Source: Candidatus Micrarchaeota archaeon
GTDB taxonomy: Archaea > Micrarchaeota > Micrarchaeia > Anstonellales > Bilamarchaeaceae
Assembly: GCA_043809425.1 (NCBI GenBank)
Contig: JAZDDV010000021.1
Location: forward strand, 1-57,391
Reading direction: 5' to 3'
Length of the DNA stretch: 57,391 bases
The stretch's first letter is position 1. The number at the start of each line of letters is the position of its first letter. Below, piece after piece: positions 26,284 through 43,500 of this stretch. The position numbers were made by a program, and so were the translations under genes. Under the pieces are notes generated by a model. It saw only the letters and a program-made list of their open reading frames with translations. It did not search any database and was not told where the DNA came from.

Positions 26284-27195
26284 TCAATGTTTGATTAGGA
26301 ACTCGTAAAGGTCCTGATTGAATCGTTTTGGTTGCTCTATCTGCGGATAGTGGGAAAGCCCTTCGTAGATATTTATCATTGCGCTGGGAACCCGTTCTCT
26401 TATCAGCTCAACTGATTTTTCATTTACCAGCGAATCGCTGCCGCCGCGGACAACAAACACAGGCACCTTCACCTCACTCAGCAATGCTCCGATGTCATTG
26501 CCTGTCTCGAACATCGCGCGCAGAGAAAGAAGCGACGCCTGTGCGTTAAGGTCAAGCGACTCGTTGAGATACTTGGCGAATTCCGCGAATTTCATGTCCT
26601 TGCGAAGATGCTTCAGGTAAAGATAAAGTGGCGCGACTGCCGGGTCAGTTTTTGCAAGCTTGGCAATTATGCGCAGACCGCCAAAAAGACTGGTGACACC
26701 CTGTGTTCTCTCAAGAACAATCATCAACGGCTGCACAAGATGTGCAAAGCGGAATGTTTCCAGCGGGCTGGAAACTGCCGGGCTTACAAATGACATGGAA
26801 CGTACGGCTGCTTGCATCTCATGATGAAACGCCGTTGCTATCAGACCGCCCATGCTGAATGCAACGGTATCTGGGTTTGTTATGCGAAGATGCGCCAGCA
26901 ATTCCGCGTTATCCCTGGCACAGCTGTAAAGATAGGTGGAAGGCTTGTCACCGTCCAGAGTTGACTGGCCATAGCCGCGGTTATTGGTGAAAAGCAAGTT
27001 GAAATCCCAGAGGCTTTTCTCCTGCAATTTCCAGATGCCGTTTTTGGTCATCCAGCCATTGAAGAAAACAATTGTCCTGGGCTTCCCTCTGTCCAGATGA
27101 ATATATTCAAGAAGAGTTCCGGAGGACGTAGAAAACTTTTTCTGAGGGGCTGCTGCTGCCTCTGCCAGTTTCGCATTTTTGGGTGCAAACCGCAT
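26284..27195 (-). CDS. alpha/beta-fold hydrolase
   Basis: 303 aa with the nucleophile elbow AFSMGG, a late GGSD acid region and GLSHYP histidine. It has its own TTTTATATATTT box about 25 nt upstream. Confidence 0.75.
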   Translation of the reverse strand: MRFAPKNAKLAEAAAAPQKKFSTSSGTLLEYIHLDRGKPRTIVFFNGWMTKNGIWKLQEKSLWDFNLLFTNNRGYGQSTLDGDKPSTYLYSCARDNAELLAHLRITNPDTVAFSMGGLIATAFHHEMQAAVRSMSFVSPAVSSPLETFRFAHLVQPLMIVLERTQGVTSLFGGLRIIAKLAKTDPAVAPLYLYLKHLRKDMKFAEFAKYLNESLDLNAQASLLSLRAMFETGNDIGALLSEVKVPVFVVRGGSDSLVNEKSVELIRERVPSAMINIYEGLSHYPQIEQPKRFNQDLYEFLIKH

Positions 27196-27499: not shown

Positions 27500-30400
27500 T
27501 TATCTTTTCGTTACGCAACGATCCCTGGTGTCATGTATGTCACACACCAGGCCGTACTGTCTGCAGTCTATTTCTTCATACTTCACAGTGCCGTCTGGGC
27601 TGCTGCAGGTTGCCTCAATCAGGATGTTTTCATCCTTGCATTTGTCATAATATTTGACCTGATGCCCTGCTGGCCCGACAATGACTGGCTGCCTGCTGTA
27701 GAGCCAGCTGCCCCCCTGCAGGTTGGCATCTGTATCTGTGCAGTTGCCTGAAGGAATGTTGTCGCATTTTCCATCAAGACAGCCGCATGGCTCGTAATCA
27801 GCAGTAACTGGGTTCACGCACTCATAGGTGCTGCAGTCAACGATCTCATGGCCATAGGCCTGGCCGTTGAGTATGCAGGTCATCTCATCCAGCTTAACAA
27901 TATCCAGGCACTGGTCGCTTCTGGTCACCTTGTTGCCATTCTCGTCATCAAAGGTTATGGAGCCCTTTACGAACACCCCGTTATTTGGTTGGCCGTAATC
28001 GCTCTCAACGCAATTGAAGTTCTTATAGGCGCAGGCACCTCCGGTACCACCTCCGGAAAAACAGACGCACGGCCCTGTTGAGCCAGTGGTCGCGTCCGTG
28101 CAGGACTGGGCACCGCAGTCGACCTTTAGCTTCTCAATCTCGAAATTATCCTTGCAGGCAGCTTCTGAAAGCTCCGTGACACTATCGCAAGAATCATATT
28201 CCATGTAGCTTGGGAAACCTGCAAAGGTCGAATTGAAAATCCCTCTGGAAGGCTGGGTCACATCTGCATCAAAACAATAGGCATAGGCAGCGCTTTCATT
28301 GCAGGCGCTGTTGTTGCAATCGCAGGGAACGTAGACTGGCTTGGGTTGGCCGTTTTCGTCGCATCTCCATTCCTTCAGCATCTTACTCTTTTCCTGCTCG
28401 GTTCCGCCTGCCCCGTCCACGCAGAAGTCTTTGTAGACAGTTATGCTACTGCTTATTTGGTCCTTCATCAGCACAGTCGACGCCATAAAGATATCCTTGC
28501 CGCTTTTCATGAGCTCAGCATCGCGGTCATTGCAGCCAATGGCAACAGGCTTCAAATCACAGGAGCCGTTGGCACAAACGCAGGATTCATAGGCATCTGT
28601 GGGGCCCACACGGCAAGTGGACTTGGTGCAATCATAGGGCCTGATGAAAGGCTGGGAGCCAAATGGCGGAACATCGCGGCAAGCATACTCCTTAAGCATC
28701 GTAGAAGAGGAGCAGTTATCCGTATAGACTTTTTGAAGAAGAATCTGCAATGGGTCTGCCCCATAGACATTATAGACAACATAGGATTGGTAGAACATGT
28801 AATCCGGGCCAGGGTCATAGTCATTGCACTTTTCAGTCACCGCTGTAAAATCATAATCAAGTTCTGCCTTTTCAACAAGGTCCTTGGCAATCACAATCCC
28901 GCAGAATGGCGCGCCGGTTGCAATAAACGGATTAAGGATTCCGCAGTCCTGCTGCGGGTTCATGGTTGACGAGAAGATGACGGGAAGATTATTTGAAAGC
29001 TGGATCTGCTTGGCACTATAGGTATACCTGTTTCCGCTGCTCTCATTAAGGCAGCATTTTACAGGCAACGCTGCGATTATATCTGCATCAGCATCGCTAA
29101 GATTTGCAGTTGGATACAGTCTTTCATAGGTTTCTCCTGAACTGGCATTCCTGTAGGTGGCATTTGTCATGCCACTAAGCTGGGAACAAAGATAGCAGGC
29201 AGAAGATATCACATCCTTCGGGCATTGCTGGCCAGTTGTTCCTGCAATACAGATGGAACCATCATCGCAAATCATGTCCTGGGCAACACAGCCAAGTTCT
29301 TTCTGGCACTGGACACAGCGAATCTTGCCAGTTGCCTGGTCAATGGCAGGATTTGTCTCATTAACCGCGGCTACCCTTATTGTCATTTTTATCGGCTCGC
29401 CCTGGACAGCTGTACGGCTGCCAAGCTCAAATGCACAGAATTTGGGCCCAAAGGAAAACTGATTTTGCATCAAATTACTACCAACCGTACTACCTGTGCC
29501 CTCTACGCCGACATACTGAATGCCCATCACGCCAGCCTGCCTGAGAGCATCCTTGTTCTTGTAGAATTCAGTGAAAAAGTCCTGATAAAATGCTCTATCG
29601 TTTTCTGGGTCTGGCCAATTGCCGCCCTGTCTGACGTTCAGGAGCACAAGCACTGGCAGGGTGCCGGCGCCCTGAACTTTCTGTATTTCCAGTATTGCCT
29701 TTTTGGATTCGTTTGCAATATCGCTGGCAATGGTTGCTGCACGCTCGATGCTTGTCATTCTGGCCCATTGAAGACTTGCAACATTAGGGCCGACTACGCT
29801 GTTATTGCCCAAATCATAGCGAAGAACTAGAACTTTAGCGTTGTAAGCGAGCATCGGCTCATTCCAGCCTGTTGAGCCTATGGTCACTGCGGGAAGACAC
29901 TTGTCGCATTCAACCCGTACATCACCTAGCTTGTCAGCAGGGACGATTGTTATCACCGGACCAAGGTTATTTGGAAAGCCGCGGCTGTTGGTCGCATAGC
30001 CAGGTCCATATTCATTCTCCTGGTAATTAAGCATGTCCATCCGGTTTTCATAGTCAACTACTGGGATTACACCATTCTCAAGATAATTTATCATGCTTAC
30101 ATCCAAGGTTATTCTTGACTGGGAAGGCATATATTCCTCCTTACAGTAACTACCATAAACACCCATGCCAGGATTTTCTTCGCAATATTTCTTCTGGTCT
30201 TCTATGTTCTTGTCAAATGTCGAGCCGTTTTCATAGGCAAGCGTCTGGTAGGTGCAGGGCTCACACCAGCCGTATTCTTTTATCTCAGGAAGTTTGCCTT
30301 CATTGTCAAGCTTGCAGTCCCCGACGCTGTAAATTTCATAGAAATAGCGGGTGCGCAGTGCGTAAACAGTATTATACGCATTGTCGCCTGCAGAAGAGAT

Positions 30401-32524
30401 TTTATACCAGTCCTCGGGCTGCACTATTTTAATGTCTTCTGTGTCCTGCTGGCCATAGACATTCCGATTTTCAAGAAGGCGATAGGGCGCGCCAAGCACA
30501 AGGGGTATGTTTCCATAGGTGGAACGTTCATCTTCGATATTGATGTCCTCCTTGTTTTTGATGTAGGCCAGAACCCAGGGGCTTCCTGCCATTATTATGT
30601 CAAGATCGCCAACCTCCCGCTCGTCGCCGTCTGAATCTGTTTGAATATGCGTAAGCGCTTCCTTTGCTGCATCAAGGACAAAGAAGTCAAATACGCGCAG
30701 CGCAAAGCCATCATTGTAGTTTCTGACGTCGCGCTTTACATAGTCAACATCTTCCTGCATGTTGCAGTTTTTCACAAACTCCCAATCGCTTATGCTCTTA
30801 TCTGCAACAGCATAGCCGATTACACGCCTGCTGCCATCAGAAACGTCACGGCCAAAGAAATACATGTAGGCTGCAGGAGGATAGGGATTCTGGTCGCCTC
30901 CGCCGGCGAGATTTGTAGCATAACACATGCCACCGCCACCTTGGGTAAATCCTCCGGGGCATTTGCCATCATTTGATGCTACCCTGTTGGCATCAAAGCT
31001 TGTTGGAATCATCTCTATGGGATACCATGAGTCGCTGGGTATGAGGTAATCCTTTATGTTGTCTTCAGGGTACGCTCTTTCATCCGGAGTCCAATCAGTT
31101 GGGCCAAGCATCACCGAGCTTTCCTCTTTACTGCACCAGCCAGTTGGTTCACAACCAGAAGCCAGTGTTTCGGGTTGTGTTGCCTGATGCGCTGGGTTAT
31201 CGTTACAGAATAAACCTCTTCTGAATTGCCAGGCCTCAATCGCCAGTACGCCCAAATTATCTTCGCCTGAGCCCTCGCCGCAATCTCGAGACAATTCTTC
31301 CGTATCATAGGCATCTGAGTCAAGAACGTAGCGTGTTGGGTAGACATCCACAGAATCATAGGTGAGCTTAAGGCTATCACCGTCATGCGATACTTTTGTA
31401 ACCGGCAGACAGATCACGACCTTGTGTCCCTGCTGGAACTCAACATAGCAGTAGGAAGGCACCTCTGCATTGCTATCGTTTTTGATTGCAAAGCCGCGTT
31501 TGTAGGAATCCCGGCTGCAATAGGCCGAGAGGCATTCCGCGCCTCCGCATTCAAATGGCGCTGCCTTGTCTTCCTTGAACATGGTATCAAAATAGGAAGC
31601 TGAGAGTGCATTGGCATAATAGCCGGTGGAAGCGCCACCCCAGGGAAACAGCCTATAGCTTGTGAATTCTTCGTGCCAGTCATCATCAAGACCATAGAGG
31701 AAAGGATAAGTATTGCGGTCGACGGTGCCGGCCGTGGCATTGTCCAGGCAATCGCTTGGAGGAATAACATCCAGAGGTTTGTAATTCACATCATTATATA
31801 GCATGTCAGCATTGCAGTGCTCGGAATTGGCAGCGCAGGGCAGATAATAATTCATATACCTGTCAATGGAACCGCCACTGTTCAGACCGCAGAACTTGTC
31901 GCTGATGGGGAAATAATACTCGTAGGTGTTATACTCGTTAAAAGATGAGCCTGCACCGAAGCGAATGTTGTTTATGGCAACGCCAGAGCGTTTCATGATT
32001 TTCTTCAGCTCCTCATCCATCGCACGCATCCGACAATCAGCATGGTAGAGGTTTATGCTGATTTCCTGCGTCTGTATTGTTGGTCCGCCACCAGAACCCT
32101 CTTCCAGCTCTTCCTTTGTAGGCATTGGCGGAGGGAACCTTGGCCGGTAGAGGAAATCTCCGCAGACCATGGCAACGCAGTCAGGACGCACGCACTCCAG
32201 GTCTTTTTTCTCACCGCAGACAGGAACGACCATGTACTCTGTTACCGGTACGTCGAAGGTCTTTACTGTTCCGTCAGGCAGAACACGCGGTACTTTCATT
32301 GTTCCTTTATCAATGGCAATGGTGCATGTCCAGTTTGTCTTGTCACAGGATTCGGTGGTGTAGGAGTAAGTGGGGCTTTTGCTCAGAACGCATTTTCCTG
32401 TTCCGCTTGCCGGAAACGCCGCATCGCGCTCGCAGCAGGTTGTTTTCTCCGCCTCATTCAGACAGCCTGCCAGAAGCAGCAGGGAAATGAAGGCAGCTAG
32501 GAAAATAATCGTTGTTTTTTTCAT
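27500..32524 (-). CDS. giant secreted cysteine-rich protein (1674 aa), last gene of the membrane-paralog operon
   Basis: The signal peptide ends at a lipobox-like LLLAGC. Cysteine content is very high throughout. The C-terminal 443 aa consist of five tandem Cys modules. Its ATG overlaps the stop of the upstream gene (TAATG). Confidence 0.85.
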   Translation of the reverse strand: MKKTTIIFLAAFISLLLLAGCLNEAEKTTCCERDAAFPASGTGKCVLSKSPTYSYTTESCDKTNWTCTIAIDKGTMKVPRVLPDGTVKTFDVPVTEYMVVPVCGEKKDLECVRPDCVAMVCGDFLYRPRFPPPMPTKEELEEGSGGGPTIQTQEISINLYHADCRMRAMDEELKKIMKRSGVAINNIRFGAGSSFNEYNTYEYYFPISDKFCGLNSGGSIDRYMNYYLPCAANSEHCNADMLYNDVNYKPLDVIPPSDCLDNATAGTVDRNTYPFLYGLDDDWHEEFTSYRLFPWGGASTGYYANALSASYFDTMFKEDKAAPFECGGAECLSAYCSRDSYKRGFAIKNDSNAEVPSYCYVEFQQGHKVVICLPVTKVSHDGDSLKLTYDSVDVYPTRYVLDSDAYDTEELSRDCGEGSGEDNLGVLAIEAWQFRRGLFCNDNPAHQATQPETLASGCEPTGWCSKEESSVMLGPTDWTPDERAYPEDNIKDYLIPSDSWYPIEMIPTSFDANRVASNDGKCPGGFTQGGGGMCYATNLAGGGDQNPYPPAAYMYFFGRDVSDGSRRVIGYAVADKSISDWEFVKNCNMQEDVDYVKRDVRNYNDGFALRVFDFFVLDAAKEALTHIQTDSDGDEREVGDLDIIMAGSPWVLAYIKNKEDINIEDERSTYGNIPLVLGAPYRLLENRNVYGQQDTEDIKIVQPEDWYKISSAGDNAYNTVYALRTRYFYEIYSVGDCKLDNEGKLPEIKEYGWCEPCTYQTLAYENGSTFDKNIEDQKKYCEENPGMGVYGSYCKEEYMPSQSRITLDVSMINYLENGVIPVVDYENRMDMLNYQENEYGPGYATNSRGFPNNLGPVITIVPADKLGDVRVECDKCLPAVTIGSTGWNEPMLAYNAKVLVLRYDLGNNSVVGPNVASLQWARMTSIERAATIASDIANESKKAILEIQKVQGAGTLPVLVLLNVRQGGNWPDPENDRAFYQDFFTEFYKNKDALRQAGVMGIQYVGVEGTGSTVGSNLMQNQFSFGPKFCAFELGSRTAVQGEPIKMTIRVAAVNETNPAIDQATGKIRCVQCQKELGCVAQDMICDDGSICIAGTTGQQCPKDVISSACYLCSQLSGMTNATYRNASSGETYERLYPTANLSDADADIIAALPVKCCLNESSGNRYTYSAKQIQLSNNLPVIFSSTMNPQQDCGILNPFIATGAPFCGIVIAKDLVEKAELDYDFTAVTEKCNDYDPGPDYMFYQSYVVYNVYGADPLQILLQKVYTDNCSSSTMLKEYACRDVPPFGSQPFIRPYDCTKSTCRVGPTDAYESCVCANGSCDLKPVAIGCNDRDAELMKSGKDIFMASTVLMKDQISSSITVYKDFCVDGAGGTEQEKSKMLKEWRCDENGQPKPVYVPCDCNNSACNESAAYAYCFDADVTQPSRGIFNSTFAGFPSYMEYDSCDSVTELSEAACKDNFEIEKLKVDCGAQSCTDATTGSTGPCVCFSGGGTGGACAYKNFNCVESDYGQPNNGVFVKGSITFDDENGNKVTRSDQCLDIVKLDEMTCILNGQAYGHEIVDCSTYECVNPVTADYEPCGCLDGKCDNIPSGNCTDTDANLQGGSWLYSRQPVIVGPAGHQVKYYDKCKDENILIEATCSSPDGTVKYEEIDCRQYGLVCDIHDTRDRCVTKR
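27503..28831 (-). repeat. five tandem ~80-99-aa cysteine-module repeats within the giant protein
   Basis: Each unit begins C-x-[DE]-x-D (CNDYD, CNDRD, CFDAD, CVESD, CTDTD), followed by D-x-C, C, and [VIYP]-[DP]-C. Units 4 and 5 have identical Cys spacing (positions 1, 35, 46, 60). I count about 36 Cys in 443 aa. Confidence 0.7.
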
Positions 32525-33600
32525 TAGACCACCTTGGAAACCATGCGCAGTATGTCATAGGCCTCTTCGCCGAAAAGATACATGAAATATCTTATGGAGA
32601 CAATGGTAACAAAAAGCGCGACCAGCGGATGGATGAGCAGGGAGGTATAGGTTCTGCCAAGCTGCTGCCCGAGTCCTCCGCTTGAAGTCGAACCGGGGGC
32701 GCCGCCCTCCTCTTCGACAACATAGTTGACATAGGCAACTGCAGATGAATAGGTCGGGTAGCAGAAGTTTCCTCCTGTAATCGCAGGCCTGGGCTGCGCT
32801 GGCGGAAGCTTCACAAAACCCGGGTCGGTTACAATAAACACATAGGGAAACACAAGGTAAAAGCCAATTGCAATGGAGATGAAAAGCGAACCTATGGCGC
32901 GCGTTGGCTGGATGGCACGCAGCACAATGCCAACGGGAAGGAAAAGCGAAAGCATGTTTGCATCAATGTAGGAGAGGAAGAATATCTGGGCATTGAGAGC
33001 AATCAGTGCGTTTGTGGCAAAGGTGTTTATGAACCTGGCTGATTCCATGGCCTTGTAAAGATCGCTGACATAGGAACCGGAGAATACCGGGAAACCAAGA
33101 AGGTTGAAGTTGAGGTTCAGCAGATTGAAGTACCAGTTGGCATTGTTAACCATGTCAGCCTGAAGCTCCGCGATGCTGTTTGCCTTGTCCATGAGCTTGC
33201 ATTTTGCAACTGAAATGGCAGAATGGAAATCAGATGTGGGTATCACAATCTTGCCGCAGGAAACCGTACCGCTGATCATTTGATTCATCATTACTGTGGC
33301 GCCGCCGACTATGATAACGAAAAACACTATGAACACGACTGTTGCCATGGACTGGTACATCTCGGTTTTTGCAGAAGTCTCAAGCTCCCTGAGATTGAAT
33401 GCCTTCCCGATGCTATAGAGCGTGCCGTTGAATATCAATGCCACGAAAAGCGCAAGGGCAACAAACGGAAGCCAGGTCATCACACCAAAGACGTCCGCAA
33501 CAAACGTGCTGATCTGCTGCTGGGTGCTTTCCTCTGCCTGCGCTGCCGGCAGGAACAGTGCCAGAAGCAACAGCACCAGTACCAAACGTCTTGTATTCAT
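32524..33600 (-). CDS. polytopic membrane protein, paralog family member 6 (358 aa)
   Basis: Signal peptide, and the shared motifs NLRELETSAKTEMYQ, PVGIVLRAIQPTRAIGSLFISIAIGFYLVFP and a C-terminal FGEEAYDILRMVSKVV. Confidence 0.8.
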   Translation of the reverse strand: MNTRRLVLVLLLLALFLPAAQAEESTQQQISTFVADVFGVMTWLPFVALALFVALIFNGTLYSIGKAFNLRELETSAKTEMYQSMATVVFIVFFVIIVGGATVMMNQMISGTVSCGKIVIPTSDFHSAISVAKCKLMDKANSIAELQADMVNNANWYFNLLNLNFNLLGFPVFSGSYVSDLYKAMESARFINTFATNALIALNAQIFFLSYIDANMLSLFLPVGIVLRAIQPTRAIGSLFISIAIGFYLVFPYVFIVTDPGFVKLPPAQPRPAITGGNFCYPTYSSAVAYVNYVVEEEGGAPGSTSSGGLGQQLGRTYTSLLIHPLVALFVTIVSIRYFMYLFGEEAYDILRMVSKVV

Positions 33601-33602
33601 AG

Positions 33603-34688
33603 TTACACCATTTGCGATAGTTTGCTTAAATCTATCTCCTCACCATACATCCTTGCAAAGAATCTCACCGAAGCAATGGCCCCTGCCAGGGCCAGGCTCG
33701 GAAGCAGGAATGCCCCTACAAAGCTGCGGGCAGTAAGCTCAAGAACATCGAAAAAATCCCTTGGCTCATTATCAAAGAAATCATTCACGAGCCGAGTATC
33801 ATCTGTGTAGACAGAAGTGCCAAGCGCTCCGAAAACAGAGCCATAGCCAAACTCGCTCATGCCTGAAACTTCCTGGAATTTGTCCTTTTCCTTTGCGGCA
33901 TACTCCACGAAAAGCCCGGCATCCCCGGGCTTGTGGATACCCGGGTCATGGAAAATGTCTGCACCGCTGGAAACTATGGAAAACATGGAAAGCAGCAGCG
34001 GATAGACGATGAAGAAAGAAAGGCAGACGGCAATGAGCAGCGAGCCAAGCGGCCTCAGGTAGGGAAGCGAACGAACGATGATTGCGGCAGGAAGGAAGAA
34101 AATTATAAAACCGCGTACTGCAAAAAGGAAAATGAAAAGCGAGTTAAGCGCAGACATGAGATAGAATATGGTTGTGCCGAAAAGCATGTTCATCGTTCCC
34201 ATGCGACCGCCATAGTTTGCAAGCGAGGAGGAAATGGTCCCGCTGAAACCGAATACGCACCAGAGGTCGCAGTGAAATTGGTTTCTGTGCGACAGTATCG
34301 TATAGGCAGAGGCAAAATAGCGCACCACCCTTACCGTATTATGCGAATAGGAAACCGCATTTATAAGATAGTTATGGCCTTCCTCGAAAATGTTTGCCGC
34401 CCCGGTAGGCGGCTGGTCAACCAGCTCGCGCACGCTGTCCACATTAATACCGCAGAAGAAATTAATGCAGGTAAAGAGAAGCGCGATGGACATTATGGAG
34501 ATGACGACCTGAACAACTTCTGTCTTCACCCAGGCAAGCATTTTTGGGTTGTTGGTCACGGTTGCAAAGTAATATACCAGCACAAAAACTATGACTGCAA
34601 AAAATGTCGCGGTACCGGTGATCTGGAGAACCGGACCGTAGAGAAAGCCGTTCAGGAAGCTGGCCTGGCAGACGTCCACGATCATCAC
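33603..34688 (-). CDS. polytopic membrane protein, paralog family member 5 (361 aa)
   Basis: Shared motifs MLAWVKTEVVQ, PAAIIVRSLPYLRPLGSLLIAVCLSFFIVYP and a C-terminal YGEEIDLSKLSQMV. It has a 4-nt overlap with the upstream gene. Confidence 0.8.
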   Translation of the reverse strand: MMIVDVCQASFLNGFLYGPVLQITGTATFFAVIVFVLVYYFATVTNNPKMLAWVKTEVVQVVISIMSIALLFTCINFFCGINVDSVRELVDQPPTGAANIFEEGHNYLINAVSYSHNTVRVVRYFASAYTILSHRNQFHCDLWCVFGFSGTISSSLANYGGRMGTMNMLFGTTIFYLMSALNSLFIFLFAVRGFIIFFLPAAIIVRSLPYLRPLGSLLIAVCLSFFIVYPLLLSMFSIVSSGADIFHDPGIHKPGDAGLFVEYAAKEKDKFQEVSGMSEFGYGSVFGALGTSVYTDDTRLVNDFFDNEPRDFFDVLELTARSFVGAFLLPSLALAGAIASVRFFARMYGEEIDLSKLSQMV

Positions 34689-35698
34689 ATCAGCCTCCCC
34701 AGTGCACTGGCATCGATTTCAGCACCTGCTGCCATTGACAGGTACTTTATGCTTGTAGAAAATATGAACAGGTAGATGATGCTGAAAAGCGTGCCTTTCA
34801 CAAGAACAAGGAATAGTGGTTTTTTGATATGGGCAGCCATATCATTCAGAAGACCAAGCGCGGCATCATCATTGCTGCTAAGCCCGGTCATGCTGCCAAG
34901 GGAATTCGGAGTGTCACCTGGGCTGCATCCGGCGAATTTAGATTGGGGTTCTCCGATACTAAATGAGGGTGAGAGGAAACCAGTTTTAGAATTGAACTCG
35001 TCTAGGTAATTGTAGTCGCTATTCTTTTCCGCAAACGCGTCTGCCGTGGGGTCTATGAAAACAATTGACAGGGGCAGGATAAGGTAAAGCGCTGCACCGA
35101 TGGCAAGCAAAAGGCCGCCTGCTGCCCGGGTGATCTTGAATGTCCTGAGAATTATGCCTATGGGCATTATTATCGTAAGCGCAACATCCGAGATGCTAAG
35201 CAGGGTTTTGAGCGTGTTTAATTCCACGATGCCGATGCTGACCACTGTCTCGGTCGTCGTCACGGCAGGCGAAAGCGCTGAATAGCCGCCGCAGCCAGAC
35301 ATTGTAACCGTGATCATCATTATGTTGCAGGAAAGGGTTTTGGAACCTTCAATCGATACCTTCTCAAGTTCGGTAAGTTTGGTAAAGTATGCCTGCAGCA
35401 TCGTAATGTCTGTGCTTATCTTGGCCTTGGCATCGCTTTGCAAAGTATCTCCAACCGTAACTGTCAGGCCTGCGAATACGCTCAGCATCACTATGAGAAA
35501 CGCAATCTGGTAGACCTCGTCTTTTGCAGTTATCTGAAGCTCCTGGATACCGAAACCCATGCCCACTGCATAGAGAATGGCAATGAATACAACTGCTGCA
35601 ACTATGGCTATGGCGGCAGTGGTCATCCAGCTGCCTGCCGCAAATGATAGCGAGGAAAGCAAAATCACTGCCAGCAGGATTATTTGGATTCTCATCAT
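34685..35698 (-). CDS. polytopic membrane protein, paralog family member 4 (337 aa)
   Basis: Signal peptide, with motifs IQELQITAKDEVYQ, PIGIILRTFKITRAAGGLLLAIGAALYLILP and a C-terminal AGAEIDASALGRLM. It has 4-nt overlaps on both sides. Confidence 0.8.
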   Translation of the reverse strand: MMRIQIILLAVILLSSLSFAAGSWMTTAAIAIVAAVVFIAILYAVGMGFGIQELQITAKDEVYQIAFLIVMLSVFAGLTVTVGDTLQSDAKAKISTDITMLQAYFTKLTELEKVSIEGSKTLSCNIMMITVTMSGCGGYSALSPAVTTTETVVSIGIVELNTLKTLLSISDVALTIIMPIGIILRTFKITRAAGGLLLAIGAALYLILPLSIVFIDPTADAFAEKNSDYNYLDEFNSKTGFLSPSFSIGEPQSKFAGCSPGDTPNSLGSMTGLSSNDDAALGLLNDMAAHIKKPLFLVLVKGTLFSIIYLFIFSTSIKYLSMAAGAEIDASALGRLM

Positions 35699-37821
35699 AA
35701 CACCTTTGCCAGGCCAGGTATCTCTATATCGCCGCCGAGCATCTTTGAGAAAGATCTGATGAACATCACCACCACAAGTGTGTTGAAGATTGGGAGAAGG
35801 TAGGCAGGAACCATGAGTTTCGCAACGTTTATCACCTCTGGTTTTCCAACATTTCCTTCAATTATTGTTGAGAAACCAGCCTCACCCCCCTTCGGCTGAG
35901 GCGACTTGGAACAAACCGTTGGGCAATCAACCCTTAGGGGCGGGTCGTAAAGGTAGGCCTCTTCAGCCACCGCGCACCTAACACAACCCTCGGGGTCACT
36001 CGGGTAGTAATAGACGCAAGACTCAAGGGGATCGGCTATGTTAACCGGACAGGAATAGGCATTGTCGCATTTTTCATGGGCAAGGTCTGATGCCGCCTCA
36101 ACGATGTCTACCTTTTCCAAGCCGCGCAGGCCTGGCAACACAACTCTGCAATCAAAACGGGAATAAAGGCAATTATAGCCAGTGACCGCTTCCCTATACT
36201 GGTGACTCAGGAACTCGGAATAGGAATCAGGATCAGTTGCCTCCAGATCACTACTGCATACGCCGAGGAAATTGGCATCGCCCTTGCAGGATGTGTAATG
36301 ACCTGGTGCCTGGGAAGTGACCTCGTCGCTTACCCAATAACCCGCCAGAGGATGATAGAAATTCCATGAACCGATATAATCGCAATTGCTCTTAAGCGCT
36401 GGTTTTATCTTGCATGCTGTCGGGCAGTTTGCCATTTCGGTAGTTTTTATCTGGTATTCGGCGGGTTTGGACGAATCTATGGGAACAAACCTGTAAAGTT
36501 TGCAATCCTGGCGAAGCCAGCTGCACGCCCTTTGCACATCCTTGCTTCCGCAAAGAGGCGAACCATAGGGGTAGGGAAGTTCGCGGCATTCTGCCGGACA
36601 GACAACTGGCTTTGTAAAATCGATTTTGAGATTGCCGTCCTTATCATAGCTGTAAGGGCTTGCATCTCCCCCTGTGAGCGAAGGAGTCATGGCAAGCCAT
36701 TGACAGGACTGGAAAACGTCTCCGTTCGGAGCTGTAACTTCAGGAACCCGGCCGCTTGCAAGGTCGTCGGCCCACCCTGTTGCATACTGGCTGCAGCCTG
36801 AAGCCGAAAGGGCGTTAACAAGGTCGTTTTGCAAAAAGTACTGCTCACCGGAAGACGGGTCTATGAACCCCCTGTTGCCGGCTCCGGCGACAGGTTCAAT
36901 CTTTGGGACGATTGTGCCCTTATAGGCATAGGGCGCTTTAAGCGCGCATTCTTCAGGGCAGTCCGCACCACCGGCGGCGAAAAGCTTATCGCCATAGAGC
37001 GTAAGCTTCAGCGAAGCCATGTCAAACACGTACATCATTGGCATGGCAAACATTATGCCAAAGGCAATGGCAATCAGCAGGCCGCCAAGCTTGCGCGAAA
37101 AGAAAAATGAGCGCAGGAATATTCCGAAAACGAGAATGAGCGGACCGACGTTGAAGGCGAATTTTTCCATGAAAAATTTCTGCGCGTTCATGGATGCGAG
37201 AAGGTTCTGGTACTGCTCAAACACAACACCGTGGCGCTCTGCATCCAGAAGAGACTCGGCACCGGTTGTGAATGAAAGCGATGCCTGGAGACAGGGCCAT
37301 GGCAGGATCATCGCGGAGCAGGAGGTTGTGAAACGCCGGCTGGCGTCCTCCAGGCTGTCAACCATTGTGTTAAGCGACTCCTTGGCACCTTGTTTGGAAA
37401 CGTCAATCATGTTCTGCAGGTAAACAGTCGTAACAGTCTGCATGCAGTCATCGCCGCAGTTTGCGAGCGCATCTATGCGGCTGCTCTTTGCTATTTCCAC
37501 AAGGGCGACATTTGTTGCGGTTAGGACGCTAACGGCAACAACAACGATTATGGCTGTTGCGATGACCTGCGAGAGCTCTGTTGTTGCCCAGCTCTTCAAG
37601 TCAGGCATGTCAAAGCCGATGGAAAGGGCATAGACAAGGGCGATTAAAACAATGGAGAAACCAATGACGAGCAGGATGGCTGACTGCCAGTTGCCTATCA
37701 AACGTTTTGATTCCTGGATGAATTTTGGTTCTGACGAATCTCCCGGGTTCGTGGTGCAGCTCACCGCGTAGACCGAGGAAACGAAGAAAATGAGCAGCAG
37801 CAGTAATGCAAGTTTTCTCAT
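35695..37821 (-). CDS. polytopic membrane protein, paralog family member 3 (708 aa) with ~390-aa Cys-rich ectodomain insertion
   Basis: Signal peptide, with motifs MPDLKSWATTELSQ, FGIFLRSFFFSRKLGGLLIAIAFGIMFAMP and a C-terminal LGGDIEIPGLAKVL. The insertion at about aa 271-660 has four CPxxC motifs (CPEEC, CPAEC, CPTAC, CPTVC). Confidence 0.8.
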   Translation of the reverse strand: MRKLALLLLLIFFVSSVYAVSCTTNPGDSSEPKFIQESKRLIGNWQSAILLVIGFSIVLIALVYALSIGFDMPDLKSWATTELSQVIATAIIVVVAVSVLTATNVALVEIAKSSRIDALANCGDDCMQTVTTVYLQNMIDVSKQGAKESLNTMVDSLEDASRRFTTSCSAMILPWPCLQASLSFTTGAESLLDAERHGVVFEQYQNLLASMNAQKFFMEKFAFNVGPLILVFGIFLRSFFFSRKLGGLLIAIAFGIMFAMPMMYVFDMASLKLTLYGDKLFAAGGADCPEECALKAPYAYKGTIVPKIEPVAGAGNRGFIDPSSGEQYFLQNDLVNALSASGCSQYATGWADDLASGRVPEVTAPNGDVFQSCQWLAMTPSLTGGDASPYSYDKDGNLKIDFTKPVVCPAECRELPYPYGSPLCGSKDVQRACSWLRQDCKLYRFVPIDSSKPAEYQIKTTEMANCPTACKIKPALKSNCDYIGSWNFYHPLAGYWVSDEVTSQAPGHYTSCKGDANFLGVCSSDLEATDPDSYSEFLSHQYREAVTGYNCLYSRFDCRVVLPGLRGLEKVDIVEAASDLAHEKCDNAYSCPVNIADPLESCVYYYPSDPEGCVRCAVAEEAYLYDPPLRVDCPTVCSKSPQPKGGEAGFSTIIEGNVGKPEVINVAKLMVPAYLLPIFNTLVVVMFIRSFSKMLGGDIEIPGLAKVL

Positions 37822-38804
37822 GCGAACGCCCTCAGAGCCTTGTTAATGGCAGACATGAATGTCACTATCAGCGCTATGGAAAGATTGGGCAGGAAAAACG
37901 CCATGGGCAGGATTTTTCCGACATCCCAGAGCGAAACCCCAAAACCCGTTGAATCGCAAACAGGAGCGCCAAGTTCTGTGTTGATTGGCTTATCCTCAAG
38001 AATGCCCTGGTAGGAGGTGCAGTCTGCCAGCGAGATTGAATCATACATCAAAAAGCTGAAGTTTACGAAGAACGGCAGCAGAGCATAGAAAGCAATGCAG
38101 AGCGCAATCAGCAGGTTGCCGCTGTTTCTTGTGGGCGGAAAAAAACGGAGCAGGAACGCAGCAGGAAGGATAAATTTTATTACGAATTCCTTTGTAAACT
38201 GGAGCATCAGGCTTTGGATTGAAATGCTCACCAGCGCGGGGATGGCATAGGTATTGGAAAGGGTCTCGAGCTGCATTGCATAGACCTTTTTGTAGGCCTC
38301 CATCATTGTCGTGAAGGTGCCTTCAAGTATCGCTCCGGCGGTGTAGGCCCAGCCAGAATCCATTGTCATTTTTATCTGGCCATCGACATAGAAGGAAATC
38401 ATGGAGGCTGTTTTTGCCTGAAGCGTTTTTGTGCAGGAGATCGCGTTGTCGACTGGGCCAAAGGCTGAAGAATAACACGTGCCGGTGACAGGGAAATTGC
38501 TGCGGGAAAGATCTATCAGTTCGGTGGAAAGCAGACAGGAAAAACCGACAAGGCTTGCAAAAGTCACCAGCAGCGCAATTGAAATCGCAAGATGATAGGC
38601 CTCGTCTTTTGCAAGCATGCTGAGCTGTGCATTGTGAAAACCGGTTCCAAAAACATAGGCAATGGTGATTCCAAGAACCGAGATCGCTATGAGAACATAG
38701 AGAAGGGTGGCCTGGTCTCCAAGAATGTCTGCAGTGGTGACCAGGCAGGACTGGGCAAAGGCAATGAATGAAAACAGTAAAAGTGCCAATAGTATTTTTC
38801 TCAT
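37818..38804 (-). CDS. polytopic membrane protein, paralog family member 2 (328 aa)
   Basis: Signal peptide, with motifs NAQLSMLAKDEAYH and PAAFLLRFFPPTRNSGNLLIALCIAFYALLP. Its C-terminus diverges (no GGE motif). Confidence 0.8.
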   Translation of the reverse strand: MRKILLALLLFSFIAFAQSCLVTTADILGDQATLLYVLIAISVLGITIAYVFGTGFHNAQLSMLAKDEAYHLAISIALLVTFASLVGFSCLLSTELIDLSRSNFPVTGTCYSSAFGPVDNAISCTKTLQAKTASMISFYVDGQIKMTMDSGWAYTAGAILEGTFTTMMEAYKKVYAMQLETLSNTYAIPALVSISIQSLMLQFTKEFVIKFILPAAFLLRFFPPTRNSGNLLIALCIAFYALLPFFVNFSFLMYDSISLADCTSYQGILEDKPINTELGAPVCDSTGFGVSLWDVGKILPMAFFLPNLSIALIVTFMSAINKALRAFA

Positions 38805-40021
38805 ATCAACCTCTCCATTCCTGAGATATAGGCTTCGCCGCCAAGTGCAACGGCCACAGACCTGGTTGCTGTCACAGTCATCAGCCCTATGAGCAAGACG
38901 TCAATGTAGGATATGACCACAAGCGAATTGACCTGGTAGAGGAAATCAAACACTGCCTCATAGGCGGCATCAACACTAAAGCCTGCACCGGCAGAGGCAA
39001 GAATTTGGTCAAGGGCAAGAAGCCCGATGCTTGTTACGGTGCCAAAGAAGGCGACCATAAGCTGGTAAATCCAAATGCTGAGGAAGAAACAAACTTCGAA
39101 AAACGGGCCGCAGGGGATTGACTGGATGGTGGCATAGATGATTTCGCCCATGGAAAGCAGGACGCGGATTACAGGATATTCGCAGATGGACTCTATTATT
39201 GTATTGGCATTGTACTTTGGCGGAGAAACCGCGTCAAGGTCCAGGGTTGGAACCTCGATGCCTCCCATCTGGCCGTGGAATATGCTTATGATGATAATCG
39301 AAAGGGGAAAGAACAGGTAGACGCCAAGGGAAATGGCGATGAGCGTGGTGCCGACCTGCCTTGAAAATGGAATGACCCTTAGTATGAAACCCAGGGGCAA
39401 CAGCACCGAAAGCCCATAGGCCTTGAAAAAGGCAAGCAGCACGCCTATTGATTCATAGATAAGAATCACGTTTATCAGGCCGCTGGCGCCTGCCTGAAGC
39501 GCCGAGCTAAGCGGGTAGAGGCCGCCATAGCGCGTAAAGCCATAGCCGAACATAAGTAGGAAACCAAATGAGTAGGAAACGCCATAGGTTGATACCGCAC
39601 GAAGACGGCTCATCCCCTTGATGACGTATTCGTAGGCAGTCACCGCGGCTGCCTGCTGCTCTGCGACGGTTGAAGCAGCATAGTCAAAATAATCAGCGCT
39701 CTGCGAAACGACCTGTTTCTCTGCAAGCGCAGACGTTATGATTTCCACAATATAACCCGATGCCCCTACCACCGAGATTACGATTGCCAGCAGCAGTATG
39801 GCTGCTATGAGCTCGCGCGTCTCAATCTTTACCCAGGCATCAAGCTGGGGCATGGAAAAGGAAACCGCCGCCATCTTTGTAGCCGCAAGCATTATTACAA
39901 CAAGCATAACGACAACGGGGAATGCCTTGAAATAATCAGACTGCAGAAAATCATCAGCAGATATTGAAAAAACTAAAGGCGCAAGTAGCAGCAAGAACAG
40001 TGGGATAAGCGACAGGCGCAT
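38801..40021 (-). CDS. polytopic membrane protein, paralog family member 1 (406 aa from ATG 40021), first gene of operon
   Basis: I chose the ATG at 40021 (MRLSLIPLFLLLLAPLVFS signal peptide) because an ATTATATAC TATA box lies 30 nt upstream. The 467-aa ORF-track version would run through the promoter and into the divergent gene. Motifs: MPQLDAWVKIETRE, PLGFILRVIPFSRQVGTTLIAISLGVYLFFP and a C-terminal LGGEAYISGMERLI. Confidence 0.75.
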   Translation of the reverse strand: MRLSLIPLFLLLLAPLVFSISADDFLQSDYFKAFPVVVMLVVIMLAATKMAAVSFSMPQLDAWVKIETRELIAAILLLAIVISVVGASGYIVEIITSALAEKQVVSQSADYFDYAASTVAEQQAAAVTAYEYVIKGMSRLRAVSTYGVSYSFGFLLMFGYGFTRYGGLYPLSSALQAGASGLINVILIYESIGVLLAFFKAYGLSVLLPLGFILRVIPFSRQVGTTLIAISLGVYLFFPLSIIIISIFHGQMGGIEVPTLDLDAVSPPKYNANTIIESICEYPVIRVLLSMGEIIYATIQSIPCGPFFEVCFFLSIWIYQLMVAFFGTVTSIGLLALDQILASAGAGFSVDAAYEAVFDFLYQVNSLVVISYIDVLLIGLMTVTATRSVAVALGGEAYISGMERLI

Positions 40022-40116
40022 AGCAAAAGATACGGCCAGAATGTATATAATCTTTCTGTTGATCTGAAGCGGCGGCAGGCATAATGATTTAAATTTGAAG
40101 CAGTCCAAATTCATAC
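40022..40116. promoter_or_regulatory. 95-bp bidirectional promoter region between the membrane-paralog operon and the 1127-aa gene
   Basis: The minus-strand TATA ATTATATAC (40043-40051) is 30 nt from the ATG at 40021. The plus-strand TATA TTTAAATT (40088-40095) is 29 nt from the ATG at 40117. Both transcripts would be leaderless. Confidence 0.55.
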
Positions 40117-43100
40117 ATGAAAAGGCTATTGTTCGCATTGCTTCTAATTGGTGTGTTGCTTGCACAGGAATGCCCTGAATGCAAGCAGGTTGCCACATTC
40201 CCAAAATCCAAGCTTGTCAGCGTGATGGATGAGCAACAACATCTGATAAGGGTATTTCTGATTAATGATACTATAAATAGGGAAAGGCTGGCAAATGCAA
40301 CCCTGATAGTATATATCTATAATGAAAGCTTTGGCGATTTTGAAAAAATCTACAGTGATAACAATGGAACTGCCTTTTATGATTTTTCAGACCATATGAA
40401 AGACTGCAGGCAGTACAAGTTTATCTATTGCTACTGCCCGACAGGAACAGGATGCCTGCTGAGCCACTGCCTAAACGCAACAGGAGTAACTGTTGGAACT
40501 TTGCCTACAGACATAAACAGCATAAAAGAGGGCAAATCTCCTGTGCCAGCACCTGCAGCGATAGCGCACCCGGCAAACCTGCCGTCTTTTGACATCCAGG
40601 CCTACTGTCCGCCGCCCGAAACAGGGTTGGGGGTTCCGACTTTCTGCATCCCTCTTGCAATACTCTTTGCAATGCTAAGCGGGGCAATGTATGCAAGCGG
40701 AAGAAACCCGTTTCAGGGATTTGACATGTCTGGCCTGCGCAGCGGCAGACACATAAAATACGAGGCCCGCGGAAGAGGCGCCGGCTTTGATTTTTCACAG
40801 CACCTTATGGCTGCAGGAATGCAGGTCGGGATGTATGCTGCGGCAACTGCAGTGGCAGGCGTAGCTGCGGCTGGAGGAAAGGCTGAGTTTGCTAAAGACG
40901 TTAGGGACTACAGGGGTGGTGCAGCAGACATGGGAAAAAGGGCAGGTCTTGCTGTTCTTGGCCCTGGAATTTCAAGGCTCGTTATGGATTATGGCAGGGT
41001 AAAAGGAAAGCAGGCACAGATGCAAGCAGAGGCAAACAAGGCACCAAAGCATGGATTATGGAGTAAACAAGCTGAAAAGATAGGCTTCTGGGGTGCACGC
41101 GGGGCAGCAGAAAGCGACTATTGGAAAGGCATCAGCATCTCTGATAAAAGAAAGGAGCTTGCGGAGAAGCAGGAGATGGGCCGAACAGGATCTGAAGCAG
41201 GCGTAAAAACCGGATTCTGGTCTCCTGCAGGAGTTGTCCTGGCAGGAATTTTCGAATCAAGCATTTTCGGAAGGGCTTACATGAGCGTTCCGACAATGGA
41301 TGTTGCAGGCGCAAAGCAGATTGCACGCGATAGCAAGGAAGTTGAAAAACAAAAAGGAGAAGGGCAGCAACAGGAACAGATGGGACAACGCCTGGGTTAT
41401 GATCTTTTTAGTATCTTCGGAGTAAAAAGAAGCGATTTTGAAAACAAGGGCAACATGAATCGTGCGCAGGCGGCTTACCAGAATCAAAAATTACAGGAGC
41501 TGGCAACCAAAACCGGAGCAACTATTGTTACTTTCAAACAACCTGGCCAGCCAGATGGTATAGCACTCCAATACGTGGTCAAAGGTGCAGACGGAAAAAA
41601 CGTAAATATTTACTGTGAATTCAGGCAAACAGAAAGAGGCATGGAACCAAGATTCATGCTGGTAGACTCACAGGGCAAAATAAGTAACATTGAAACAGTA
41701 TATGAAAGGGGTAAAGGAACCATAGACGGTCATGGTGTAGAAATAGCTCGTGCTAAAGTCGGAGAGTATGATGCAATTATAGGAGGAAAAATCATAAAAC
41801 AAGCGATGATGGACGACATTGTAAAGGTCGATGGAAAACTCATTTATGACCCAATGCAAAAACAGGAAATAATCCAGAAGGCAAAAATCACTGAGGGAGA
41901 TATCGTAGGCCTAACGTTAACTGGCACTACTCTGCAGATTGGAAAACCAGGAGAGGTAGGCACCAAGGGAGATGTGCTTGGTCTTTTTAAGGGGGGAGAA
42001 GCAGCCCTAAATGATGCGCTTAAGAATGGCAGCGATATGGGAGCTGCAAAACTACAATACAACGAAGCAATATATTTAGTTAAACAGGCTCTTGAGACAC
42101 AAGCAGTGGAAGAGAGAAAGGATGAAATTGGAAAACAGAAGCAACAGCTGGAAAAGGATTTGCTTCAGAATACCCCAGAACAAAAACTCTGGGTCAGTTT
42201 AAAAGAAGAAGGAGAAGCGCAGGAGCACATAAAGGAAGCGAATAAGGCTAAGGCAGCTGCAGACCAGGCAAGGGCAGCGGGCGATGCCGATACGGCTGCT
42301 GCATACATAAAGGTTTACAAGGAAAACATTGCTGAAGCACAGAAACACTTGGATGAGTCTGCCAAGCACATGCAGATGTATGGTGACCGAGTACTTCAGA
42401 CACATGGCGATTCGATAACTTTACAGACAATAGATGCTGTGGCAGTTAGAACACAGCAGCAGATGGGCCAGCTTGACCTACAACTGGCTGCTGGAGCTAT
42501 AAGTAAAATGACCCATGAGGATGAGATGGCTAACCTGGAGAATCGCATGGAAAAACTGAGACAATCACAGGAAGCAGTACAAGCTAATCTAGAGAATACG
42601 GGCACCATAGTTGCAATCTATAGAAATGTTGAGGGGATTGCTAAGGAAGCTGGAGTAGACACTAGTGCAGCTGCACGCACTGGTATTGTTTCCACCGCAG
42701 TCCATGAAAAAGCTTACGAGCAAACGACAGGATTTTTAGAAGAAGCCCAGCAGAGAGTCCAGGCAGCCAGGGAAGACCTTGATAAAAGATTCAAAGAAGG
42801 AAAATTAGATCTGGATGGTTACAGGCACGAGACAGAGAGAATGAATAAAACTGAAGATGATCTGACTAGGATGCAAAGGGACACGAAAAGGATCGAAGAA
42901 AATGCAAGCAGGGTGCCGCCGCACGTGCAACAAGAATACCTGGCGCAGATGCATGAGCATTTTGTGAAGACCAATGCTCCTACAGTGGTGGCAGTTTCAG
43001 AGGCCTACCAAACCACAACAACGGCAAAGGAACTTTATGGCAATGCCAGTAGAATTGATAACGCGGTAATACTTGCCAAGGAAGACTCAGTTGGCCAAGG

Positions 43101-43500
43101 AATGGCAATTCTGAATCATGCAAATCGCGACGGAGCAGATTTCGCTGCACCAAAAACAGGAGGACCGAGTTATTTTGCCGCAATGATTTACGAACGTGAG
43201 CTGCAGAGAATGAACGAAACAGGAGACCCTGCGGAGTATCAGAAGATCCACTCAAACCTCATGCAAACAAGCCTTTTGGCGCAATATGCTGCTGAAGGCG
43301 GGAAACAGGCAAAGATGGTAGATGAAGCCCTAAAAGATTCCTACAGAATGCTGAATGAAAGGGAACAAGTCAAAGGAGAAAGGGAAGCTGCCAAGGAGCA
43401 GGATGAGGAAATCAAGAGGACGCATGCAGAAGAAAGGGCAAGGAAACAAGCGGCGATGAACGAGGCTGCAAGAAAGATGAGGCACGGGCCAAAAGACTGA
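40117..43500 (+). CDS. membrane-anchored giant coiled-coil protein (1127 aa)
   Basis: The signal peptide is followed by CPEC, a CarboxypepD_reg-like beta domain with Cys cluster (about 150 aa in total) and a TM helix at about aa 172-194 (VPTFCIPLAILFAMLSGAMYASG). About 930 residues then follow, including a Gly/Ala-rich hydrophobic patch, a beta-rich domain and a long Glu/Lys/Ala/Gln coiled coil from about aa 640. Confidence 0.8.
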   Translation: MKRLLFALLLIGVLLAQECPECKQVATFPKSKLVSVMDEQQHLIRVFLINDTINRERLANATLIVYIYNESFGDFEKIYSDNNGTAFYDFSDHMKDCRQYKFIYCYCPTGTGCLLSHCLNATGVTVGTLPTDINSIKEGKSPVPAPAAIAHPANLPSFDIQAYCPPPETGLGVPTFCIPLAILFAMLSGAMYASGRNPFQGFDMSGLRSGRHIKYEARGRGAGFDFSQHLMAAGMQVGMYAAATAVAGVAAAGGKAEFAKDVRDYRGGAADMGKRAGLAVLGPGISRLVMDYGRVKGKQAQMQAEANKAPKHGLWSKQAEKIGFWGARGAAESDYWKGISISDKRKELAEKQEMGRTGSEAGVKTGFWSPAGVVLAGIFESSIFGRAYMSVPTMDVAGAKQIARDSKEVEKQKGEGQQQEQMGQRLGYDLFSIFGVKRSDFENKGNMNRAQAAYQNQKLQELATKTGATIVTFKQPGQPDGIALQYVVKGADGKNVNIYCEFRQTERGMEPRFMLVDSQGKISNIETVYERGKGTIDGHGVEIARAKVGEYDAIIGGKIIKQAMMDDIVKVDGKLIYDPMQKQEIIQKAKITEGDIVGLTLTGTTLQIGKPGEVGTKGDVLGLFKGGEAALNDALKNGSDMGAAKLQYNEAIYLVKQALETQAVEERKDEIGKQKQQLEKDLLQNTPEQKLWVSLKEEGEAQEHIKEANKAKAAADQARAAGDADTAAAYIKVYKENIAEAQKHLDESAKHMQMYGDRVLQTHGDSITLQTIDAVAVRTQQQMGQLDLQLAAGAISKMTHEDEMANLENRMEKLRQSQEAVQANLENTGTIVAIYRNVEGIAKEAGVDTSAAARTGIVSTAVHEKAYEQTTGFLEEAQQRVQAAREDLDKRFKEGKLDLDGYRHETERMNKTEDDLTRMQRDTKRIEENASRVPPHVQQEYLAQMHEHFVKTNAPTVVAVSEAYQTTTTAKELYGNASRIDNAVILAKEDSVGQGMAILNHANRDGADFAAPKTGGPSYFAAMIYERELQRMNETGDPAEYQKIHSNLMQTSLLAQYAAEGGKQAKMVDEALKDSYRMLNEREQVKGEREAAKEQDEEIKRTHAEERARKQAAMNEAARKMRHGPKD

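Follow-up and report, generated by a model that had tools for sequence, protein, structure and literature searches.

The stretch of DNA analysed here, hereafter the window, comprises the 57,391 nucleotides of contig JAZDDV010000021.1, part of a metagenome-assembled genome (MAG) of a Candidatus Micrarchaeota archaeon (NCBI; locus tags V1492_019xx). On its minus strand, between positions 32524 and 40021, lie six genes, which we call A to F, for homologous proteins with five transmembrane (TM) helices each. Subunit A (38801..40021, 406 residues) is encoded by the first open reading frame (ORF) of the set and is followed by B (37818..38804, 328 residues), C (35695..37821, 708 residues), D (34685..35698, 337 residues), E (33603..34688, 361 residues) and F (32524..33600, 358 residues), all on the same strand. 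An earlier reading made from the letters alone (the sequence-only reading) had described these ORFs as six tandem paralogous polytopic membrane proteins of 328 to 708 residues, and both the genes and the length range were recovered as described. At each junction from A to F, the stop codon of one gene and the start codon of the next overlap or are separated by 2 nt, and the six genes thus form one operon. The gene for a giant partner, G (27500..32524, minus strand, 1674 residues), is co-transcribed with F, its start overlapping the F stop codon, and a second giant, H (40117..43500, plus strand, 1127 residues), is divergent from A. For subunit A the mechanical ORF extends to 40204 and the NCBI model has 435 residues; we placed the start of the 406-residue form at 40021 because the signal peptide, MR(L), then begins as in the orthologs. 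The divergent control region between A and H (40022..40116), read directly, is 95 bp long. It contains TATATAAT at 40044-40051, about 26 nt from the A start codon, and, at a similar distance of about 26 nt from the H start (ATG), TTTAAAT at 40088-40094. Both could be archaeal TATA boxes, each of a leaderless transcript, and may act as promoter elements.

Judged by sequence comparison, the homology of A to F is genuine and not an artefact of TM composition. Nearly all pairs gave BLASTP alignments of 30-63 bits, with 22-28% identity over 160-265 residues, and phmmer detected direct links between all pairs except D-E, which provides the pairwise statistical support that the sequence-only reading had called for. 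A hidden Markov model (HMM) of the family found exactly six members in the window. The three motifs described in that reading also align across the set, although the instances had been listed in a scrambled gene order. The amphipathic motif of the first loop is present in all six proteins, with an invariant Glu (AKxE loop), as is the core motif, LPxGxxLR-x5-R-xxG...P. In an alignment of 127 family sequences, R228, R234, G237 and P252 (F numbering) were invariant and E80 was conserved in at least 90%. The C-terminal G-[GAE]-[ED] tail was found in five of the six subunits, as claimed, the exception being B, which ends in ...NKALRAFA. The acidic tail is also absent from the eight B orthologs displayed, and its absence in B is therefore a conserved trait.

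By hydropathy, the N-terminal part consists of a signal peptide (absent in E), TM1, a 23-residue loop carrying AKxE, TM2 and a domain of about 100 residues; TM3 (LPxGxxLR), an 8-residue turn (x5-R-xxG) and TM4 (LLIAxxxGxYxxxP) form the middle, and a variable domain, TM5 and a tail of about 15 residues (G-[GAE]-[ED]-x...[RKQ]-hydrophobic-hydrophobic) complete the protein. All six window proteins fit this five-TM pattern of the newly defined family, including the Pro of TM4. Subunits A, B and D have a signal peptide and five TM helices, and the C-terminal tails of A and D read ...LGGEAYISGMERLI and AGAEIDASALGRLM, respectively. Subunit E (C-tail YGEEIDLSKLSQMV) has no signal peptide, which is likewise missing in the displayed E orthologs, and most F orthologs are also without one. 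In subunit F (five TM helices, C-tail FGEEAYDILRMVSKVV), C115, C134 and C280 are invariant within the F orthogroup. The variable domain between TM4 and TM5 has only about 60 residues in F, whereas in C (C-tail LGGDIEIPGLAKVL) the five-TM core carries an extracellular insert of about 400 residues that holds 21 of the 28 Cys residues of the protein. The C orthologs keep this Cys-rich insert, and in long C-type relatives it contains Cys repeats of the CxxCPxxCR/K type, with no Pfam match in the 30 scanned. In C-type relatives the insert can exceed 1000 residues (P0047, 1683 residues; P0070, 1555 residues; alignment A9), and in the loci L024, L026 and L028 subunits D and E also have inserts of 700-1060 residues; the TM4-TM5 loop is a hot spot of domain accretion.

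Composition was informative about sidedness. Across the 127 sequences, Cys accounted for 2.3% of ectodomain 1 and 6.4% of ectodomain 2, for 0.03% of loop 1 and for 0% of the C-tail; N-glycosylation sequons were distributed in the same way, and Lys plus Arg made up 20% of the TM3-TM4 loop. We conclude that both large domains are outside and that the loop with Glu, the turn with two Arg residues and the acidic tail are on the cytoplasmic side, which answers the question, left by the sequence-only reading, of which side the Arg-rich core and the acidic C-terminal motif face. In the predicted topology, the N-terminus would lie outside and TM1 would lead into the cytoplasmic loop with the invariant Glu. 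TM2 would then be followed by an ectodomain of about 100 residues folded as a helical hairpin. TM3 and TM4 are predicted to form a hairpin whose short cytoplasmic turn bears the two invariant Arg residues (LR-x5-R-xxG), with the variable, disulfide-rich ectodomain after TM4 and the short, acidic, amphipathic cytoplasmic tail after TM5.

An AlphaFold2 model of F, built from 14 sequences, was all-helical, with a predicted local distance difference test score (pLDDT) of 66.9 (80-90 in the TM core) and a predicted TM-score of 0.61; alignments for structure prediction were shallow, the word-indexed homolog search having returned 3, 10 and 7 proteins. In this model helices 125-167 and 175-229 would reach well past the membrane as a helical hairpin of about 6 nm. 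A Foldseek search of the PDB with the model gave nothing significant, with no match better than E=1.2 and a template modelling score (TM) of 0.35. The best local matches were to alpha-hairpins of hexameric adaptors (for example 9tg4_D, 77 residues, root-mean-square deviation 2.9 Å), with E-values above 1 that are not significant and a likeness that is generic for helical hairpins.

None of the six proteins had a match in Pfam (E≤1), NCBIfam, PHROGs or PADLOC, or in sequence and profile searches of the PDB, in keeping with the sequence-only reading, which had recognised the motifs from no named family. The relatives it had put forward for comparison were not borne out. For VirB6/TrbL (PF04610), none of the six had a Pfam match at E≤1, the 127-sequence family profile aligned to VirB6 of A. 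fabrum pTiC58 with an hhalign probability of 0.7%, and the Foldseek match to 8rtd_L had E=2.8 and TM 0.17-0.20. For the T2SSF platform proteins (TadB/TadC, PilC, FlaJ/ArlJ; PF00482), no Pfam T2SSF match was found in any of the six. The Mce/MlaD heterohexamer (PF02470) was also rejected, with no Pfam match and with five TM helices by hydropathy as against one. Among the 37 window ORFs scanned, which lie before about 49.5 kb, no secretion-ATPase or pilin domain was detected. The literature searched, archaeal dark-matter surveys included, contains no description of the family or the cluster. At the level of sequence, A to F are thus an undescribed family, in a system that is without a detectable relative among described systems.

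The family is nevertheless large. A filter-only HMMER scan of 1.84 billion representatives returned 2845 proteins at E≤1e-3, of which 1846 reached E≤1e-10. For every one of the top 150 matches a single clear best counterpart stood out among A to F, at 150-350 bits compared with 40-60 for the runner-up, showing that A to F are six ancient orthogroups. Alignments A2 and A3 held sequences too varied to be used in scanning loci; a scan of GTDB species genomes with F-type patterns identified 55 loci. Of these, 46 are labelled Micrarchaeota or Micrarchaeia, and the other nine come from Anstonellales/Anstonellaceae, Bilamarchaeaceae, one 'ainarchaeum' MAG and five unclassified archaeal MAGs. The order A-B-C-D-E-F-G was found in about 30 loci, with H divergent from A or placed after G. 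Exactly six members were present in 50 of the 62 complete runs, that is, runs away from contig ends, and no run had more than six.

Could the array be a lineage-specific expansion of six independent paralogous transporters, receptors or adhesin anchors? The very different ectodomain sizes, with proteins of 328-708 residues in the window and up to about 1700 residues among the relatives, are what diversified receptors would show. An expansion, however, would vary in number and order, and a count that is mostly six and never more, a fixed order in which every position is an ancient orthogroup, overlapping start and stop codons and the failure of any transporter family to match make this explanation very improbable. 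The proposal of the sequence-only reading, that the six are distinct subunits of one assembly rather than recent duplicates, instead gains support from the separate orthogroups, from the fixed order, which is mirrored in a second type of cluster (see below), and from the fixed number.

Clustering of all flanking ORFs identified only two conserved partners of A to F, namely G, which follows F in 29 loci, and H, which accompanies the six-gene set in 23 loci. G carries a signal of the lipobox type (LLAGC) and is otherwise without TM helices; 83 of its residues (5%) are Cys, many of them invariant among orthologs. From these sequence features, G is an extracellular lipoprotein of giant size. Its residues 1-1200 are conserved, and residues 1200-1674 are specific to the window genome. 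The latter part (about 1200-1674; window 27500-28924) is missing in nearly all orthologs (alignment occupancy about 0.1). These C-terminal 475 residues contain 5-11 Cys per 100 residues and, by eye, several Cys-patterned modules of about 95 residues, and look like a lineage-specific extension of a surface protein. Searches with 18 G orthologs gave no Pfam or PDB match. We considered whether G might be the Micrarchaeota surface-layer (S-layer) protein (PF05123, S_layer_N) and rejected this candidate, as none of these orthologs had a Pfam match and G is 5% Cys; the published Micrarchaeota S-layer protein is a Cys-poor PF05123 protein (bioRxiv 10.1101/2021.04.28.441871). H has a signal peptide, a Cys-containing ectodomain of about 150 residues and one TM helix (about 173-193). 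The best-conserved part of the protein is the strongly conserved basic juxtamembrane segment that follows, SGRNPF..FD.S..R.G...Y.ARGRG. The remaining cytoplasmic region of about 930 residues is rich in Ala, Glu, Lys and Gln, is coiled-coil-like and has no conserved Walker A motif, and neither H nor G had a match in searches of Pfam, NCBIfam, PHROGs, PADLOC and the PDB.

The window represents a type 1 cluster, composed of H, the six genes and G. Type 2 is an older, more distant cluster with six members and an H-like gene upstream, and without G; H and its likes thus accompany both types. Some genomes have both types (L001 with L039; L024 with L029). By position-specific HMMs, the members of type 2 correspond to A, B, C, (D), E and F, indicating that the six-gene order predates the duplication of the cluster. 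Neither type includes an ATPase gene.

This last observation bears on the possibility that the system is a static scaffold, in which H and A to F would anchor G, or the S-layer and pseudo-periplasm, to the membrane, or would help to insert and fold disulfide-rich surface proteins. That G is a giant lipoprotein, that C has a large disulfide-rich ectodomain and that H resembles a structural coiled-coil protein with no NTPase motif all fit such a role, as does the presence in Micrarchaeota of a 20-25 nm pseudo-periplasm under the S-layer, the anchoring of which is unresolved (bioRxiv 10.1101/2021.04.28.441871). A pure anchor, however, would have no need of the translocase-family ATPase to which a third type of cluster couples the six-gene set, and the known S-layer protein is the different, Cys-poor one. 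We regard a static scaffold as rather unlikely overall; because the type 1 cluster has no motor in cis, a structural role nonetheless stays a serious rival.

Type 3, found via P0160, begins with a polytopic protein of 250 residues, six family members and two paralogous adaptors with two TM helices and a cytoplasmic domain. An ATPase of about 505 residues and proteins of 100, about 140 and about 250 residues come next, and the cluster ends with a single-pass protein of about 790 residues and a secreted, Cys-containing giant of 1500-1970 residues. The ATPase matched DUF87/HerA (4.6e-14), AAA_10 and the TraG P-loop, weakly TrwB and FtsK, and, in the PDB, chains of HerA and VirB4. The adaptor profile had no match in the PDB, and H showed no similarity to the adaptors (probability 0.8%); the profiles of G and H found no match in type 3 loci. 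A metagenome scan with the ATPase gave 217 relatives, of which 80 were kept. Among these, the loci with at least 58% identity and enough upstream DNA nearly all contained six members, the exceptions being L079 (five detected members) and L064. Complete type 3 runs numbered 16 from the metagenome scan, with 2 more from other sources. In one locus (L106:19987-20943) a DDE transposase (PF01609, 1.6e-25) directly follows the giant last gene of the type 3 cluster; this is the only mobile-element signal near any cluster.

The ATPase raises the possibility of a DNA-transfer machine, akin to conjugation or to the crenarchaeal Ced/Ted import systems, in which the ring formed by the subunits would be the DNA channel and the HerA/VirB4-like ATPase would be encoded in cis (type 3) or elsewhere. 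Its matches to HerA, VirB4, TraG, TrwB and FtsK are in line with this, and so are the small helical protein and the protein with a weak winged-helix-like match that come after it. No relaxase, pilin or VirB6 homolog was found, however, and giant Cys-rich surface proteins are not part of the Ced system. Moreover, the clusters lie among housekeeping genes, no relatives of the family were found in viral contigs, and the window cluster has no ATPase of the HerA/VirB4/FtsK superfamily; BLAST of the type 3 ATPase and adaptors against all window ORFs returned nothing. DNA transfer is, in our judgement, improbable.

At one locus the arrangement is reduced to a minimum. L042:7614-11002 (Micrarchaeota MAG JAFGPA010000015.1) encodes one family member, one two-TM adaptor and a HerA/VirB4-like ATPase, and the single member is equidistant to all six orthogroups (53-76 bits). 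From its sequence, this locus may reflect the ancestral state, before duplication. After the ATPase come proteins of 252, 704 and 1034 residues. The metagenomic loci L121-L137, whose ATPase is about 55% identical to that of type 3, have no family members upstream of the adaptor and ATPase module, after which come proteins of about 100, 140, 260 and 890 residues. Either the six-gene set is located elsewhere in these genomes or the module works without it. A neighbouring protein of about 380 residues in these loci looks, by eye, like a GT4-like glycosyltransferase and is not a family member.

The reading that we lean towards, with modest confidence, is that A to F are six non-interchangeable subunits of one complex, most likely a ring in the cytoplasmic membrane, with pseudo-sixfold symmetry and 30 TM helices, on which a Micrarchaeota-specific apparatus for translocation or contact would be based. 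One copy of each subunit would enter the complex, and such a 1:1:1:1:1:1 heterohexamer would have arisen from a homo-hexamer; this fits the fixed number and order of the genes, the ancient orthogroups, the specific features of the subunits, the translational coupling and the one-gene version beside an ATPase of a hexameric family. A single gene giving a homo-hexamer and six genes giving a hetero-hexamer would produce the pattern seen with L042. In the pseudo-periplasm, the hairpins of the ectodomains would come together as a stalk or tube, with G as the extracellular part of the apparatus. H, anchored by its one TM helix, would have its basic juxtamembrane segment placed to meet the acidic tails and the conserved Glu of the ring, and its long coiled-coil tail could serve as a cytoplasmic scaffold; the cytoplasmic Glu, the two Arg residues and the acidic tails are thus candidate contacts between subunits or with H. 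In the sister clusters the same six-gene set would be wired, via the two-TM adaptors, to a hexameric HerA/VirB4-type ATPase. Because of this ATPase link in type 3, translocation or contact appears the most likely function, and the ring would act as the membrane conduit or base of an envelope-spanning apparatus of obligate symbionts.

Several points weigh against the heterohexameric ring. Its stoichiometry and shape are drawn from gene counts and from analogy with hexameric ATPases, the type 1 cluster has no ATPase, with none found in the 57 kb of the window, and no substrate, effector or pilin-like gene was identified. The minimal one-gene locus is a single example. The monomer model of F is only of moderate confidence, and for the core of G (residues 22-1200, alignment of 7 sequences) modelling gave no usable result (pLDDT 33.9).

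DPANN archaea such as Micrarchaeota live attached to a host and are without most biosynthetic pathways and most known transporters. Micrarchaeota in particular possess few transporters and are believed to depend on cell-cell contact (PMC8975820). In co-culture, nanotubes of the host are received by an unidentified 21-nm barrel of the ARM-1 Micrarchaeon envelope, the components of which are 'subjects of ongoing research' (PMC11329633). Tentatively, and as a rather unlikely extension of the ring hypothesis, the ring together with G and H could be the gateway on the symbiont side, an envelope-spanning docking or conduit complex for uptake from the host that evolved from a one-gene homo-hexamer with a HerA/VirB4-type motor, and for which the 21-nm barrel would be one candidate structure. 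If so, the gateway would define a new class of trans-envelope machine in archaea, with a heterohexameric 30-TM ring as its foundation, and would provide an uptake route for cells that are poor in transporters and auxotrophic for lipids and nucleotides. The locus offers an eight-gene candidate (the six putative ring subunits, the disulfide-rich giant lipoprotein G, and H, the coiled-coil giant with its membrane anchor) for contact structures seen by cryo-tomography, in a system that is conserved across the phylum and has sister versions tied to a translocase-type ATPase. It may also be a clean natural example of the passage, via gene duplication, from a homo-oligomer to a hetero-hexamer of fixed order. 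The conserved giant partners, the wider family and the ATPase-linked sister clusters all go beyond what the sequence-only reading had described.

The surroundings of the cluster are ordinary chromosomal genes, including gyrA, ftsZ, hisG, hisS and a gene for a major facilitator superfamily transporter, and the window contains no tRNA or Rfam features. The gyrA gene (412-2832, plus strand) codes for a full-length DNA gyrase subunit A, with DNA_topoisoIV and six GyrA C-terminal blades, in a DPANN archaeon. About 6 kb from the cluster, a 1438-residue protein (17482-21798, plus strand) with Laminin_G_3 (concanavalin-like lectin), NosD/right-handed beta-helix and weak CarboxypepD_reg domains is a second large putative surface or adhesin protein; it is not kept beside the cluster in other genomes, save for a weak match in L055. 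A 400-residue protein (25040-26242, minus strand) shows only weak similarity to Bud32/RIO-like kinases, in the C-terminal third (NCBIfam E about 1e-3), and none to any Pfam family, and its gene adjoins that of an alpha/beta hydrolase (26284-27195). About 7 kb from the cluster on the other side, a 236-residue single-domain KaiC/RadA-like ATPase (47321-48031, minus strand; PF06745, 1.1e-48) is encoded by a gene that overlaps an unannotated ORF of 168 residues (48028-48534, minus strand). Other genomes do not keep this ATPase near the cluster, to which it is therefore probably unrelated.

Comparison with known systems yields partial likenesses. In the hexameric adaptors AcrA, EmrA and HlyD, six long antiparallel hairpins form a tube, and the hairpin of the F model is locally alike; these adaptors, however, have one TM helix or a lipid anchor together with lipoyl and beta-barrel domains, which are absent from A to F. 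The inner-membrane complex of type IV secretion systems (VirB3/VirB6/VirB8 with VirB4) and the Ced system (CedA/A1/A2 with CedB) likewise place polytopic and small two-TM proteins immediately upstream of a HerA/VirB4-family ATPase, as type 3 does. In contrast to the secretion systems, A to F have no match to a Pfam family of that machinery, Foldseek TM-scores are below 0.3 and there are six paralogs instead of one VirB6. The likeness to Ced is one of gene arrangement, and on the side of sequence no Pfam or NCBIfam model matched A to F. The clusters described here have no pilin, VirB8-like or relaxase genes, and that of the window has G and H and no ATPase. The mycobacterial Mce1 and Mce4 systems (MceA-F, YrbEA/B, MceG) also have six tandem paralogs in a fixed order, each with its own orthogroup, and we use them by analogy only. 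In Mce1, MceA-F reportedly form one pseudo-sixfold assembly, seen by cryo-electron microscopy as a helical tube that projects from the cytoplasmic membrane and crosses the envelope. Each Mce subunit has a single TM helix and an MCE (MlaD) domain, whereas A to F have five TM helices and no MCE domain; the window cluster, which is archaeal, has no ATP-binding cassette permease or ATPase, and no similarity of sequence or fold was detected. Finally, Nanohaloarchaeota have giant membrane-anchored extracellular proteins of the SPEARE type with a VirB4/TraG-like ATPase, for which roles in host contact or secretion have been proposed (PMC10266531). Whereas these are single giant proteins with Ig repeats and a fused ATPase, the present system has six five-TM paralogs, and its G and H are without Ig or ATPase domains. 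SPEARE also belongs to a DPANN symbiont with giant surface proteins and VirB4-family ATPases, and is the nearest conceptual parallel to the system described here.

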